From Promethearchaeota archaeon (GTDB lineage Archaea > Asgardarchaeota > Lokiarchaeia > Sigyniarchaeales > SOKP01), in assembly GCA_048941265.1 (NCBI GenBank), contig JBHLNT010000110.1:1-13882 (forward strand): a stretch of 13,882 nucleotides of DNA, in the 5' to 3' direction. Positions 3,329 to 8,216 of this stretch are shown in pieces (within the stretch, counting starts at the first letter, position 1; each line of letters starts with the position of its first letter). The notes under the pieces are model-generated. The model ran no database searches and was not told where the DNA came from. It saw only the letters and a list, made by a program, of their open reading frames with translations. A program made the translations under genes and the position numbers.

Positions 3329-3856
3329 ATGGATTTAAAAAGAGAAATAATGTTAAAAGTCAGTATTTTTGGAGAAAAAAATGTTGGAAAGACTACTTTA
3401 ACTAAACGATACCTTACTGGGCTTTTTGACGATGATATAAAATCTACATTAGGATCAGAGATTTTTATCAAATTTTTAAATTTTAAAAATTACTTAGTTA
3501 CCCTTCAAATATGGGATTTTGGAGGAGAAGATAAGTTCAGATTTTTACTTCCGATATACTCGAAAGGCTCACATGGAGGAATCTTCATGTATGATCTCTC
3601 AAGACCTAATACTTTGAATAAAATTAATGAGTTTTTAGATCTTTTTAAGCAAGGGTTAGAAGAAAACAAAAAAGAAATACCGATTTTATTGGTTGGTGGA
3701 AAATTAGACCTTATTAACACTAGCGATGGAATATCAGAGAATATAAGGAATTTAATGGAATCTAGAAATTTCTGCAATTTTATTAAATGTTCTTCAATAA
3801 CAGGTGAAAATGTTGAGCGCTTATTTGAATTATTGATTGAAAATATATTGGATTAA
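3329..3856 (+). CDS. Rab-like small GTPase (Ras superfamily, Asgard type), 175 aa
   Basis: G1 GEKNVGKTT, G2 STLG, G3 LQIWDFGGE, DKFRFLLPIYSKG resembling RabF motifs, G4 variant VGGKLD, G5 variant CSSITGENVE. SD GGGAG at 3316-3320. No C-terminal prenylation motif. Confidence 0.95.
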   Translation: MDLKREIMLKVSIFGEKNVGKTTLTKRYLTGLFDDDIKSTLGSEIFIKFLNFKNYLVTLQIWDFGGEDKFRFLLPIYSKGSHGGIFMYDLSRPNTLNKINEFLDLFKQGLEENKKEIPILLVGGKLDLINTSDGISENIRNLMESRNFCNFIKCSSITGENVERLFELLIENILD

Positions 3857-3924
3857 AGAAGTCAATAACAGAAAAACTCGTTTGTAATTGTAAATTTCAT
3901 ACTCCTTATTTTATACATGAACAA

Positions 3925-5007
3925 TTAATAAAATATTTCTTTTGCAATCTCATCTATAGGTCTTAGGATATTTATATCACCAGTCCAATCTTTTAAAATA
4001 TTATAATATATAGATTCAATTTTTTCAACAAATTTTTTAAGTAAGATTTGAAGAGACTTCAATTTCTCATCACATACAATTGCTCCATATATATATTCCC
4101 CGGGTTGTATTAGTATTATTTTTTCCCCCTGATCAATAATTAAAGCTTCTTTTTGCTTGGTAACTGTTTCGAAAAGCATTTTAGCAATAGTCATTCTGCC
4201 AGAAACAATATACTTGCTGTCATTTTCATTTAATCCATCAAATGACTTTTCATAGATAAACAAGCCAGAGTTATGAATAATTAGAATAGAGGATATTTTT
4301 TCTTGCCAATCGAACTCAGAAAAAGATGGAATTGAAAGAGAAAAAAGAAATATTAAAGTTATGCCTATTATTTGCATAATATCCCCAAATAATCTGCCCG
4401 TCAACCCAAAAATCCTTAGCATGAAAGTTAATGTCAGTTGATACCCAATTACAATAAGGATAAGTCCTATACAAAATTCAAAAAATTTTAATTTAAAATT
4501 AGCAATTAAACCCTTCTTATATAGGTCAGAATATATAGATTTTATATAAAATACAAAAAATATTACAAATATGGGCCATAATAAATCAGAGAATAATGTA
4601 GCATACTCCAAACTAAAAAAAAGAATACATATATAAATTATAATCATAATTGAAAATATCTTAGTAAAAAGAAATTTTGTTATAAAAATCTTATTTTTCT
4701 CAAAAATGTAAATGAAAAAAAGTGCAAATATAATAATAATGATATAACCAATATTAATTAGCAAAGTCCTTAATTCAGAATCATAAATCTGGTAATCAGC
4801 AATAATTATTATCATCCATCTAAGAGAATATCCTAATAATACCCAAAAATATGATTGTTCTTGTAAAGTTCTTAAATCTCTCCTTTTATTTTTAATCCTT
4901 ATATAAAATATTAATGCAAACTCTAAAAAGATAAACGCGATAATGCATTCCAATAATAATAATATATCTCTTAACGAACCAGTTATCGGATATAGCTCTT
5001 GAATCAA
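3925..5007 (-). CDS. Membrane protein with ~7 TM helices and a C-terminal longin-like domain (paralog B), ~360 aa
   Basis: Seven hydrophobic segments, then PSFSEFDWQEKISSILIIHNSGLFIYEKSF...IIDQGEKIILIQPGEYIYGAIVC...LLKKFVEKIESIY...WTGDI, a beta-beta-alpha-beta-beta-beta-alpha-alpha pattern. Start moved to TTG at 5007 behind the strong SD AAGGAGGGG. Confidence 0.75.
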   Translation of the reverse strand: MIQELYPITGSLRDILLLLECIIAFIFLEFALIFYIRIKNKRRDLRTLQEQSYFWVLLGYSLRWMIIIIADYQIYDSELRTLLINIGYIIIIIFALFFIYIFEKNKIFITKFLFTKIFSIMIIIYICILFFSLEYATLFSDLLWPIFVIFFVFYIKSIYSDLYKKGLIANFKLKFFEFCIGLILIVIGYQLTLTFMLRIFGLTGRLFGDIMQIIGITLIFLFSLSIPSFSEFDWQEKISSILIIHNSGLFIYEKSFDGLNENDSKYIVSGRMTIAKMLFETVTKQKEALIIDQGEKIILIQPGEYIYGAIVCDEKLKSLQILLKKFVEKIESIYYNILKDWTGDINILRPIDEIAKEIFY

Positions 5008-5023
5008 ATTAATACCCCTCCTT

Positions 5024-6169
5024 TTAATTAAAAATTTTATATATAATAGTATCAAAACCTGAAAATATTTTCTCTTCAGAGCCTTTAATCATCTCTATAT
5101 TTAAGAGAATATTTCGATAAAACGCCTCAAATTCATTTTTAAGTACTTTATGAAAATAACTAACGCTTTTCATTTCTTTCTTAACTAAAAGACAATACAT
5201 AACAAAAGAAAGTGCTTCTTCGCCCTGATTAATTAATATTATAAAATTCCCATGTTCAATCCTTTTTATGGTTCCTCCCTCAATATGAGTCAGACCTGTG
5301 AAAATATCTTTAATCCCTTTTATCCCACTAGAAAATAGAAGTCTGTCCTCCGGAAGAATTAAACTTTCCCGAGAATATTTATTTTTTTCTTCTTGTTTAG
5401 TGAAATCATAGGTATATATAATCTTAAAATTATTATAGTCAATAATATAGAGCTTTAAAACGTTTTCTTTCCATTTAAATTCGAGAAATATTGGAAACCT
5501 ATATGATCCAAAAAAGGTTATCATTAATCCAATCACAAAAAGCGAGATAAATAATAATTGCACAATATTTTGGACCTGGTCAGAAAATATTTCTTGCTTT
5601 TTTTCAGCTCCTAATAAAATGCCACTTATCAGAATGACTTCTCCGATAAAAAAGACTATAATTCTCCTTCTAATATCACCTGATGTTAATTTTATTAATC
5701 TAATATGAAAATAAAACATGTAAATCACTCCAATCGAAACGGCAATTAATATTAGTATGATATAAATTAATGTACCCATAACAAGGAGAATTAATAAGCT
5801 TAATATTATTGTTATAACACTAATTGCTCTACTAATTTTTGGATTAATTATATCACGAAAATCGTTTAGAGAAATAATAAGCTGAAAAATAATTACTCCA
5901 ATCGATACTAAAATATGAGATAAGTAGCGTAAGAGATTACTTAGAGGAATATCTGTAATGTAATAACTATTAATAGAGAGCAAAATCACCCCTGTAACTC
6001 CAAACAAATATAAACATCCCATTGCTACTAAAAAATAATTAAGACGTATTTTCTCATCTTTAACTTTATAAAATAAATAGAAGAAATAAATACTAATTTG
6101 ATAACCTATAATAAGAGAGATAATTGTAAAAGGAAAATAATATTCATTTAAATAATCGGTCCAAATCAT
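5024..6169 (-). CDS. Membrane protein with ~7 TM helices and a C-terminal longin-like domain (paralog A), 381 aa
   Basis: Seven hydrophobic segments, then PIFLEFKWKENVLKLYIID...FSSGIKGIKDIF...IKRIEHGNFIILINQG...YCLLVKKE...LKNEFEAFY. SD GAGGGG upstream of the ATG; 16-nt gap to paralog B suggests an operon. Confidence 0.75.
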   Translation of the reverse strand: MIWTDYLNEYYFPFTIISLIIGYQISIYFFYLFYKVKDEKIRLNYFLVAMGCLYLFGVTGVILLSINSYYITDIPLSNLLRYLSHILVSIGVIIFQLIISLNDFRDIINPKISRAISVITIILSLLILLVMGTLIYIILILIAVSIGVIYMFYFHIRLIKLTSGDIRRRIIVFFIGEVILISGILLGAEKKQEIFSDQVQNIVQLLFISLFVIGLMITFFGSYRFPIFLEFKWKENVLKLYIIDYNNFKIIYTYDFTKQEEKNKYSRESLILPEDRLLFSSGIKGIKDIFTGLTHIEGGTIKRIEHGNFIILINQGEEALSFVMYCLLVKKEMKSVSYFHKVLKNEFEAFYRNILLNIEMIKGSEEKIFSGFDTIIYKIFN

Positions 6170-6838: not shown

Positions 6839-7309
6839 TTAATTGCTTCTCGCATCATTAATGTCTATTTTCTTTGAAGGTTTTTTCCCAACTTTCACTT
6901 TTAACAAGCCGTTGGCCATGACAGATTTTATCGAATCCACGTCTGCGTTCGCAGGTAATGGGATATCCATATCTACATCAATAAAAGTGAAAAAGAACCT
7001 CATAAACGGATGTCCACGTTGACCAGATTCTTCTTTAGTTTCTCCCTCAGTCTTAGGCTTTGATGCTTTAACATTTAAGCTATTGCCTATTAAAGAGACC
7101 GTTACATCCTCTTTTGTACGCCCAGGTAATGGCACTGTAATCAAATAGCCGTCTTCACGATCCTCAATATTGTATGGAACCCATGAACCAATTCTGCCCA
7201 TGCATTCCTCTACATGTCGAGCTATTCTCCCCATGAAATGCGGAAAGCCGTGAGCAAAGGCGTCAGGCCCACACCAATTTTGATGCTTACCTCCTTTTGT
7301 ATGACACAT
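6839..7309 (-). CDS. hsp20: Small heat-shock protein (Hsp20 / alpha-crystallin family), 156 aa
   Basis: PYNIEDREDGYLITVPLPGRTKEDVTVSL, IPLPANADVDSIKSVMANGLLKVKV and the C-terminal IXI motif (KIDIN). SD AAGGAGGT upstream. Confidence 0.93.
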   Translation of the reverse strand: MCHTKGGKHQNWCGPDAFAHGFPHFMGRIARHVEECMGRIGSWVPYNIEDREDGYLITVPLPGRTKEDVTVSLIGNSLNVKASKPKTEGETKEESGQRGHPFMRFFFTFIDVDMDIPLPANADVDSIKSVMANGLLKVKVGKKPSKKIDINDARSN

Positions 7310-7377
7310 GGTTTTTATACCTCCTTTTATTTTGTTTTTTTTTATAATTTGTTATTTAATATCAGATCAAAATTATT

Positions 7378-7530
7378 CTAAAGGAAAACTGCGATTAATA
7401 ATCGAAAATAGTACAAGGATATCCCTATAATTGAAAAAACTAAACCAGCAATGATATAGCTACATGTTCTACTGCAAAATTTTTTAAGCGTTCTGCCTAT
7501 TCCAATATTATTTTCCCTCAGATTGATCAT
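7378..7530 (-). CDS. Possible 50-aa membrane peptide (below the ORF-track cutoff)
   Basis: ATG at 7530 to TAG at 7378 gives MINLRENNIGIGRTLKKFCSRTCSYIIAGLVFSIIGISLYYFRLLIAVFL. It is co-oriented between padR and hsp20 but has no clear SD. Confidence 0.35.
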   Translation of the reverse strand: MINLRENNIGIGRTLKKFCSRTCSYIIAGLVFSIIGISLYYFRLLIAVFL

Positions 7531-7559
7531 CCTTAATTTTTTTTTCTAATATTTATTTT

Positions 7560-8216
7560 CTAAAAGTTCTTTTCAAATTCCTCATCATCATCTACTATTT
7601 CGATAATTTTAGCGTTCTTATCTCGTTCTGCTCTAATAGTCTCAAGAACTTTTGTGTATTCCTCAATTTTACTCTCTACCACATTTAATCTTGTTTTTAT
7701 TCTATGTTTACCATGCTTTAAATGTGAAATAATTCGCTCTAATCTATCAATATTTCTCAAGGAATAATCATTAACATCAATTTCCTGTTCAAACGGAAAC
7801 TCTGGAAACGGAAAACAACCCATCATTTTCTCCATTGTTTCCTCACTTGGCACTGATGCTTTGATAATCGTTTTTATATAATCTCCTAGTGTAGTAATAC
7901 TTGGCTCGAGATTATCCTCTAAGACCTTTTTTAATTCTTCCTTGCCTTTTTCCGTAATTCTATATACTTTTTTTCTACGATTATTTTCATCAACTAATTC
8001 TTTCATTTCTATTAATAACTTTTTAGAGAGTCGATTTAATAATGGATATATTGTTCCCGCTGAAGCTTGCCATAAATCTTTAAATTTATCGTTAATGTCT
8101 TGAATGAGTTCATAGCCAGTAATGCCAGTTTGGTTTGTAATAATTGATAACACTAAAATCTCTAATCCTGATAATGACTTCTTATGATAACCACTAAATC
8201 TCTTTCCAAAGAACAT
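7560..8216 (-). CDS. PadR-family winged-helix regulator with a C-terminal coiled-coil extension, 218 aa
   Basis: LEILVLSII...TGYELIQDI...WQASAGTIYPLLNRL...RRKKVYRITEKGKEEL. Confidence 0.93.
   Translation of the reverse strand: MFFGKRFSGYHKKSLSGLEILVLSIITNQTGITGYELIQDINDKFKDLWQASAGTIYPLLNRLSKKLLIEMKELVDENNRRKKVYRITEKGKEELKKVLEDNLEPSITTLGDYIKTIIKASVPSEETMEKMMGCFPFPEFPFEQEIDVNDYSLRNIDRLERIISHLKHGKHRIKTRLNVVESKIEEYTKVLETIRAERDKNAKIIEIVDDDEEFEKNF

Follow-up and report, generated by a model that had tools for sequence, protein, structure and literature searches.

The 13,882-nucleotide (nt) stretch of DNA analyzed here, hereafter the window, is a 13.9-kb contig (JBHLNT010000110.1) of the 5.01-Mb genome of a Promethearchaeota archaeon (GCA_048941265.1; 361 contigs, 91% complete), with a G+C content of ~24-39% per 1-kb stretch. 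It carries two adjacent genes, designated A and B, whose products combine a predicted seven-transmembrane-helix (7TM) domain with a cytoplasmic tail of the longin type, next to a gene for a Rab-like small GTPase. This observation, first made in a preliminary description of the sequence, was confirmed, and a functional link between A-B and one GTPase subfamily is well supported. The interpretation offered in the same description, namely that A and B heterodimerize and provide guanine nucleotide exchange factor (GEF) activity toward the neighboring GTPase, is partly supported. Two of the conditions named as refuting it, a tail fold other than longin/roadblock and a lack of enrichment of homologues beside small GTPases, were examined, and both turned out in its favor, the second for one clade of the family. 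With somewhat better than even confidence, we consider that A and B form a heterodimer whose longin platform docks and most likely activates a private GTPase, either as a GEF or as a docking site. The features concerned are listed below by position in the window.

3329..3856, + strand: Ras/Rab-like small GTPase, 175 amino acids (aa); from Pfam Ras, NCBIfam small_GTP, motif alignment and subfamily tree
3925..5007, - strand: gene B, 360 aa plus stop, encoding a 7TM-longin protein, the more canonical longin partner; from homologues, AlphaFold2, Foldseek and hhalign
5024..6169, - strand: gene A, 381 aa plus stop, encoding a 7TM-longin protein, the diverged partner; from homologues, AlphaFold2, Foldseek and homology to B
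4333..5007, - strand: B membrane domain, aa 1-225, seven predicted helices; from the AlphaFold2 model and family loop charges
4300..4329, - strand: B juxtamembrane linker motif PSFSEFDWQE, aa 227-236; from the family alignment
3928..4299, - strand: B cytoplasmic longin domain, aa 237-360; from the model, Foldseek and hhalign
5008..5023, - strand: 16-nt spacer between A and B, with the ribosome-binding site of B (GGAGGGG); from the sequence
5504..6169, - strand: A membrane domain, aa 1-222, seven predicted helices; from the AlphaFold2 model and family loop charges
5465..5494, - strand: A juxtamembrane linker motif PIFLEFKWKE, aa 226-235; from the family alignment
5027..5464, - strand: A cytoplasmic domain of longin order, aa 236-381, including an insert modelled with low confidence (aa 260-299); from the model and Foldseek

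According to the preliminary description, A and B are highly diverged paralogs with about seven hydrophobic helices each, and their genes converge on that of a Rab-like GTPase lacking a lipid anchor. All of these statements held. BLASTP aligns A and B over 144 residues, covering the last helix and the tail, with 26% identity (E 2e-7), while hhalign, comparing the A family profile (20 sequences) with that of B (23 sequences), gave a probability of 98.9% (E 3.3e-17) across 326 columns. Judging from these comparisons, A and B are full-length paralogs. Seven long helices are present in both AlphaFold2 models, and 68 nt separate the ends of the convergent B and GTPase genes.

B follows A on the same strand after a gap of 16 nt, and this spacing suggests that the two are co-transcribed. 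In a search of sequencing runs with a 2951-nt stretch, nine DNA-type runs contained all or part of it, and no RNA run was listed. An AGAGGGG ribosome-binding site precedes the ATG of A. A mechanical list of open reading frames started B at the TTG at 5055; the true start is the TTG at 5007, because the GGAGGGG site is located 6 nt before it and the homologues measure 360-364 aa. In related loci the next ATG, GTG or TTG in the B frame is found ~22 nt or less from the A stop, or upstream of that stop. The pooled set in which pairing was assessed comprised 79 loci, of which 21 came from genomes, 57 from metagenomes and one from the second pair in the window's own genome. B follows A in all 41 A genes with at least 1200 nt downstream, and A precedes B in 42 of the 43 B genes with at least 1200 nt upstream; the sole exception, L075, carries a second B-like gene in place of A. 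Tandem arrays also occur, with the order B-A-B in loci L018 and L044 and A-B-A in L066.

The family is large and unnamed and, among the records found, it is restricted to Asgard or unnamed archaea. Word-seeded searches retrieved 21 relatives of A and 24 of B, and all source names given were Asgard labels. An exhaustive profile search of 1.84 billion cluster representatives returned 1717 proteins at E <= 0.001, 881 at E <= 1e-10 and 332 at E <= 1e-30; the best 150 of these matches mostly aligned over their full length, and most of these proteins were 350-390 aa long. Matches in the ESM Atlas were only to unnamed clusters of 109, 313 and 65 members, 93-98% of them from Archaea. A pattern-limited scan of 185,579 species genomes yielded 21 loci, all in records labelled Asgard or 'uncultured archaeon'. 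Since six candidates were scored per genome in a sample of 301 genomes of the phylum, the counts obtained there are lower bounds: a B-type match (E <= 1e-30) was present in at least 49 of the 301 genomes, in at least 23 of the 90 high-quality genomes of the sample and in at least 30 of 68 genomes of the window's own family, its own genome not counted. The latter genome also contains distant multi-helix proteins with the same tail at C113:26-2500 (L037), C337:10137-13071 and C351:15971-17104. Those of C113 and C337 form adjacent pairs, the first C113 protein having a weak Sybindin match (E 0.0012), and the genome-wide scan found no Ras-family match on either contig. A further B-like gene is located at the start of contig C79 (141-1241), where the contig end cuts off its upstream side.

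The evidence that ties A-B to a small GTPase comes from gene neighborhoods. A GTPase was scored as adjacent when a Ras-type reading frame was found in the 1.3 kb preceding A or in the 1.0 kb following B, and as absent only where both flanks reached at least 800 nt. Among 65 full-length B sequences, 20 were adjacent to a GTPase, 10 had none and 35 could not be scored (flank < 800 nt or no A gene upstream), so that a GTPase adjoins the pair in 20 of 30 determinable loci. In a maximum-likelihood tree of B, obtained by quick search and with several long branches that make its finer branching unreliable, all 20 adjacent sequences belonged to one clade of 28 (Shimodaira-Hasegawa-like approximate likelihood ratio test, SH-aLRT, 94), which held one sequence with no GTPase and seven unscored. 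Within this clade, then, 20 of 21 determinable loci are adjacent. The other 37 B sequences comprised none adjacent, nine with no GTPase and 28 unscored. A GTPase within about 1 kb of the pair is thus missing in nine of nine determinable loci of the other clades, and the family as a whole therefore needs no adjacent GTPase, which weighs against the GTPase platform proposed below. The enrichment of homologues beside small GTPases that had been anticipated holds for one clade and fails elsewhere, and linkage is claimed here only for the clade to which the window's pair belongs.

GTPase density beside the pairs was 0.19 per kb (21 in 110,548 nt), compared to 0.034 per kb in the farther flanks (7 in 208,607 nt) and 0.018 per kb genome-wide (90 Ras-family matches in 5,011,874 nt), corresponding to a 5.7-fold and a 10.6-fold enrichment, respectively. 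Binomial values calculated for these densities take no account of relatedness and cannot serve as probabilities. The linkage takes three forms: 13 GTPase genes are located upstream of A in divergent orientation, another five follow B on its strand, and the remaining three, including that of the window, are convergent. In a tree of 88 GTPase domains (62 from the window's genome and 26 from the loci), 18 of the 21 neighbors were placed in one clade of 19 (SH-aLRT 89), whose 19th member is a tandem neighbor in L001. Of the remaining three neighbors, two were placed in the parent clade, and the third, in L007, is an additional gene of the Arf type. Only two of the 62 GTPases of the window's genome belong to the neighbor clade, namely that of the window and that of contig C143, and both are found beside A-B pairs. 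The latter is part of a second trio (C143:38641-41502; L030:3642-6503), in which A-like, B-like and GTPase genes follow each other on one strand with gaps of 15 nt and then 55 nt between the open frames, the GTPase being downstream of the B-like gene. The presence of a second trio with the same GTPase subfamily in the same genome indicates that the trio was duplicated as a unit. A-B and the GTPase can thus be viewed as a matched regulator-switch set of two ever-paired longin proteins and one private GTPase subfamily.

Other genes also accompany the pair. In L007 the Arf-like GTPase (3459-4010, +; Pfam Arf 1.5e-22) is directly downstream of B, and a GTPase of the subfamily is also present upstream of A. 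In another clade (L076, L078, L083, L086 and L090) the pair is followed by a gene for a 173-aa Roadblock/MP1-like protein (1295-1813 in L086; Pfam MAPKK1_Int 2.7e-7, Robl_LC7 4.7e-7), and the available flanks of these five loci contained no GTPase. In still other clades, a CheR methyltransferase gene (Pfam CheR 6.9e-44) is a neighbor in six loci (L063, L067, L068, L069, L073 at 1427-2476, and L092), and a RING/C1-type zinc-finger gene in nine, the loci listed being L051-L059, L082, L087 and L088.

The window GTPase scored 106.6 bits against Pfam Ras (cut-off 21.6; E 1.2e-30) and matched NCBIfam small_GTP with E 4.4e-19. Its motifs, which we take to resemble Rab signatures, are the P-loop GEKNVGKT, a G3 WDFGGE with Glu at the position of the catalytic Gln, a G4 GGKLD in place of NKxD, and a G5 CSS; the protein ends in ENILD, with no C-terminal cysteine. 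In an alignment of 19 orthologues, GxxxxGK[ST], DxxG and K-x-D are present, in line with membership in the Ras superfamily. The P-loop is normal, switch I reads T/S-M/L-G, and G5 reads ECS-[AS]-K-T-G-x-N-V in most sequences; S-[AS]-K occurs in 18 of the 19, and the window GTPase has CSSI there. Following LQIWD-x-x-G, 18 of 19 orthologues have Glu or Asp where the catalytic Gln would stand, and G4 has the form GGK-x-D, with Gly for the Asn of NKxD, in 16. In Ras, changes at these Gln and Asn positions alter intrinsic hydrolysis and nucleotide affinity. As regards the prenylation motif of eukaryotic Rabs, a C-terminal cysteine is absent from all 19 aligned orthologues. Most of them, the window's not included, end in a short basic-then-hydrophobic tail, e.g., KRSSFI.

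The start codons of these GTPase genes deserve a comment. At a conserved site 12 codons before the P-loop, 15 of the 19 orthologues beside A-B pairs carry ATT, ATC or ATA, 6-8 nt after a G-rich Shine-Dalgarno-like motif (for example in L002:5236-5769(-), L004:3851-4384(-), L009:5222-5764(-), L014:8406-8942(+) and L030:5979-6500(+)). Thirteen of these 15 have no in-frame ATG, GTG or TTG between the upstream stop and the P-loop, and standard gene callers therefore truncate them to ~140 aa starting with MGV. In the window's genome, 60 Ras-type reading frames contain a P-loop, and five of them have no canonical start; the window GTPase itself begins with ATG. The neighbor GTPases probably use a non-AUG start, and the possibility that they are genes truncated before the P-loop was rejected, the region being in frame and conserved with this probable start.

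Concerning the cytoplasmic tails, the longin-like pattern noticed in the preliminary description was recovered at the level of the fold. AlphaFold2 models both tails, after helix 7, in the order beta-beta-alpha-beta-beta-beta-alpha-alpha, which is that of the longin superfold (about 120-140 aa). The B tail has strands at residues 238-245, 250-255, 289-292, 297-302 and 306-312 and helices at 266-283, 317-333 and 346-359; the A tail has the same order with a low-confidence insert. Foldseek searches of the B tail against the PDB ranked zeta-COP (5mc7_A, E 6.9e-4) first, with TM-scores by target of up to 0.70, and further returned sigma-adaptins, the VAMP7 longin, TRAPP (7e93_E) and Mon1-Ccz1-Ypt7 (5ldd_D), as well as MglB (6h5b_B, 3t12_B), LAMTOR and solved Asgard roadblocks. 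For the A tail the matches were Sec22b (1ifq_A, E 0.05), VAMP7, Bet5 (3cue_C) and sigma-adaptins. The order of the tails is longin rather than roadblock, because no helix precedes beta-1; only short linker turns are found there, and a roadblock fold was ruled out.

At the sequence level the two tails differ. Several stand-alone proteins of about 140-160 aa in the window's genome are matched by the tail profiles, and three of the five aligned pass PF19036 ('First Longin domain of FUZ, MON1 and HPS1') with 35.8, 35.1 and 30.5 bits (cut-off 26.1). The B tail aligns with these five longins over 123 columns with an hhalign probability of 97.4% (E 1.4e-11), which identifies the B tail as homologous to longins that pass PF19036. 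Against PDB sequences the B profile matched only Trs23 (3cue_A), weakly (E 0.096), and the A profile none. Below threshold, Pfam Sybindin was matched by three of 23 B members (best E 6.2e-4) and Robl_LC7 (PF03259) also by three of 23 (best E 0.013), while none of the 20 A members matched any longin family in Pfam. The gathering cut-offs of PF19036 (Fuz_longin_1), PF04099 (Sybindin) and PF13774 (Longin) were reached by neither A nor B. By these comparisons B is the canonical longin partner and A the diverged one.

Longin subunits that act as GTPase-activating proteins (GAPs), such as FLCN, NPRL2 and SMCR8, are marked by a conserved arginine finger and by a GP motif in the loop joining beta1 and beta2, as far as the available part of the source describes them (PMC12290439). 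In the family alignments neither tail contains a GP motif or an invariant or near-invariant arginine, and the loop in question reads HNSG in B and DYNNF in A. This is as expected if the tails are not GAPs of the folliculin type, and that candidate was dismissed with respect to the marks given in that part of the source.

The whole A and B proteins, membrane domains included, were modelled on the family alignments with a mean predicted local distance difference test score (pLDDT) of 77.9 for A and 77.6 for B. Lysine and arginine accumulate in loops 1, 3 and 5 (means of 3.5, 1.7 and 4.0 in the A family; 5.5, 3.4 and 4.5 in the B family) compared to loops 0, 2 and 4 (0.8, 0.1 and 0.3; 1.3, 1.0 and 0.0). 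By the positive-inside rule this bias places the N-terminus outside and the tail in the cytoplasm in both proteins, so that seven helices, an outer N-terminus and an inner C-terminus, the topology of rhodopsins and G-protein-coupled receptors (GPCRs), are predicted for both. Sequence membership in those families was not detected, as neither A nor B has a Pfam or NCBIfam match to them. By structure, the A model resembled microbial rhodopsins and GPCRs only weakly in Foldseek, with E-values of 0.04-0.15 and TM-scores by target of 0.33-0.48. A retinal protein was ruled out, helix 7 of A (IVQLLFISLFVIGLMITFF) and of B (LFGDIMQIIGITLIFLFSL) being devoid of lysine, and so was an inverted-repeat 7+7 transporter, since A and B are predicted in the same orientation. 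Conserved buried polar residues in B (E20, E29, N85, T115, D209 and Q212), along with the conserved Q24, R64 and E177 of A, suggest that the membrane domain is more than an anchor.

Between helix 7 and the tail, a linker common to both proteins had been described as P.F.EF.W.E. The sharing stood, while the strict form proved too narrow: among the reading frames of related loci, only 11 of 73 for B and 16 of 49 for A contain it. The relaxed form P.[FL].E[FYQI].W is present in 67 of 73 and 36 of 49, respectively, and P, E and W are invariant in all 31 sequences of a joint A and B alignment. Within the separate families, P227, E231 and W234 are invariant in 23 of 23 B sequences, and P226, L229, E230, F231 and W233 in 20 of 20 A sequences.

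Taken together, we propose the following. A and B would be obligate partners forming a parallel heterodimer of two seven-helix subunits, with the N-termini outside and the tails inside. Inside the cell, their longin domains would come together as a single platform, as in Mon1-Ccz1, TRAPP and BLOC-3, onto which the dedicated, anchor-less Rab-like GTPase encoded next door would dock. The platform would most likely recruit and activate the GTPase at the membrane, as a GEF or a docking site, and the P..E..W linker after helix 7 may convey the membrane domain's state to the paired longins. Heterodimerization is suggested by the strict gene pairing and by precedent, and physical binding, the GEF direction as opposed to GAP or anchor, and sensing by the 7TM part are likewise conditional. 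In favor of this proposal, the Foldseek matches of the tails include platforms bound to GTPases (5ldd_D, 3cue_C, 7e93_E, 6h5b_B, 3t12_B and LAMTOR), and a Roadblock/MP1-like gene stands beside the pair in five loci of a related clade. A further step, in which A-B would be an archaeal seven-helix receptor heterodimer and its Mon1/Ccz1-type longin pair a signal-gated GEF for the private GTPase, is put forward tentatively, as rather less likely than not. If true, it would amount to GPCR logic built from Rab-GEF parts.

Apart from the missing GTPase in other clades, several observations weigh against this proposal. No family of Pfam or NCBIfam is matched above threshold by either A or B. In Foldseek the E-values are weak, with one match at E <= 0.001 for B and none for A, whose best tail match has E 0.05; the pLDDT of the tails is moderate and falls below 50 at A residues 260-299. 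The A tail, compared with the same five stand-alone longins, reached an hhalign probability of 1.1% and is tied to longins only through B. No catalytic GEF residues could be named. The resemblance of the modelled 7TM part to rhodopsins and GPCRs is generic. Moreover, the GTPase gene of the window is convergent and therefore lies outside the A-B transcript, on a transcript of its own. In a complex prediction with the A tail (222-381), the B tail (222-360) and the GTPase, a control in which chain 1 was replaced came within 0.20 of the score of the complex, and this result bears on binding in neither direction.

The known systems closest to the proposed platform are Mon1-Ccz1, BLOC-3 (HPS1-HPS4) and Fuzzy-Inturned, with which A-B would share two paralogous longin subunits forming one platform for a Rab GTPase. 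The likeness to the Mon1-Ccz1 type rests on the homology of the B tail to Asgard longins positive for PF19036 and on 5ldd_D among the Foldseek matches. However, those complexes have three longin domains per subunit, whereas A and B have one each, after helix 7, and they are soluble and peripherally recruited, whereas A and B are predicted to be integral, with seven helices. In the TRAPP core, the longin heterodimer Bet5-Trs23 (TRAPPC1/C4) contacts Ypt1/Rab1; the B profile weakly matches Trs23 and Sybindin and the A tail matches 3cue_C by Foldseek, all sequence matches being below family thresholds. Unlike TRAPP, A and B are predicted to be membrane-integral, and Bet3-type subunits were not seen at the A-B locus. 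MglA-MglB and Ragulator-Rag share the superfold and the use of a dimeric platform that docks a small GTPase, with MglB and LAMTOR among the Foldseek matches, but Roadblock/LC7 platforms have a helix before beta-1 that the A and B tails lack, and Ragulator is anchored to the membrane by a lipidated adaptor, whereas A and B would be anchored by seven helices in the same chain.

The comparison with GPCRs, especially the heterodimeric class C GABA-B receptor, is one of logic: two paralogous 7TM subunits with the N-terminus out and the C-terminus in, whose intracellular face would act on a GTPase, as proposed for A-B. Weak Foldseek matches to GPCRs, including 7ca5_B, had E-values of 0.07-0.15. GPCRs have no sequence homology to A-B, their GTPase-facing element is the helical core and not a folded longin domain, and their partner is G-alpha, while the A-B neighbor is Ras/Rab-like.

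Small GTPases number in the dozens in Asgard genomes, as do longin and roadblock proteins. The stand-alone and fused longin and roadblock proteins of the phylum belong to the same domain superfamily as the A-B tails. In its accessible portion, one survey lists 130 Roadblock/longin Asgard clusters of orthologous genes (asCOGs), longin-GTPase fusions, longin fusions to two-component domains, and an operon with LAMTOR1-like, Rab and DENN genes (Liu et al., 2020, 10.1101/2020.10.19.343400). The available part of another describes soluble roadblock and longin proteins and GTPase fusions, and states that genome layout rarely pairs Asgard GTPases with longin or roadblock genes (Tran et al., 2024, PMC10933270). 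Links of longins and roadblocks to small GTPases are proposed in the accessible sections of both, and a 7TM-longin pair is not described in those sections (Liu et al., 2020, 10.1101/2020.10.19.343400; Tran et al., 2024, PMC10933270); neither main text uses '7TM' or 'transmembrane'. In full-text searches of the literature we found no description of a 7TM-longin protein, and the supplementary asCOG tables may list the family. A longin platform within a seven-helix membrane protein is thus an architecture that we have not found described for any organism. The trio makes it possible to test whether Asgard longins are already Rab exchange factors or docking platforms. If the receptor reading is true, it would offer a candidate picture of how longin Rab-GEF platforms became tied to membranes before eukaryotic endomembranes.

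A sensor kinase of the window's genome (C300:4407-5855; L040:908-2353), with the domains PAS-HisKA-HATPase_c, resembles the longin tail profile at its C-terminus (E 4e-16) and is encoded ~0.9 kb upstream of a Ras-family GTPase (C300:6786-7268). It fits the longin/two-component fusions reported in the part of the survey available (Liu et al., 2020, 10.1101/2020.10.19.343400).

Among the alternatives, the one that survives best keeps the same partners and reverses the control, the longin pair acting on the GTPase as a GAP or serving as its state-specific anchor or effector, after the model of MglB with MglA, the SRX domain of SR-alpha with SR-beta, and Ragulator with Rag. In the Foldseek ranking, MglB and LAMTOR are about level with GEF-type longins, three of 23 B members have the weak Robl_LC7 matches, and the Roadblock/MP1-like gene neighbors the pair in a related clade; to our knowledge, MglB-type GAPs need no arginine finger. 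However, the order of the tails is longin, with no helix before beta-1, the sequence link is to the first longin of Mon1/Fuz/HPS1 and to Sybindin types, and the Glu at the catalytic Gln position of the GTPase means that MglB-like positioning of an intrinsic Gln is inapplicable as such. We regard this alternative as doubtful.

A further possibility is that control runs from the GTPase to A-B, which would be a transporter, a channel or another membrane machine whose longin domains receive the GTPase signal. The charged and polar residues conserved in the helices (E20, E29, D209 and Q212 of B; Q24 and E177 of A) and the lack of an adjacent GTPase in most clades would suit such a machine. However, no transporter family was matched at any threshold, save for a single CitMHS match (E 9.7e-4) in one of 20 A members, and the best structural matches of the membrane part, weak as they are, were receptors and rhodopsins. 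This option seems unlikely.

Mere co-inheritance or co-regulation of the GTPase and A-B as neighbors in one lineage, without direct interaction, would agree with the confinement of adjacency to one clade, with a genome rich in GTPases (90 Ras-family matches) and with the report, in the part of the article available, that the GTPase genes of MK-D1 do not, in general, share operons with genes for roadblock or longin proteins (PMC10933270), but it is very unlikely given that the linkage is retained in three gene arrangements and in a trio duplicated inside one genome, involves one private GTPase subfamily enriched over both farther flanks and genome, and joins it to a partner domain of a fold class that docks small GTPases.

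Finally, some other genes of the window were assigned by Pfam scan, and these do not recur beside the A-B pairs of other loci. They comprise an HSP20 gene preceded by a PadR-type regulator (6839-8216, -), a gene for a protein with two DUF6125/ATC_hydrolase-like repeats (1052-2227, -), and, at the contig start, a TaqI_C-like specificity domain (3-1010, +).

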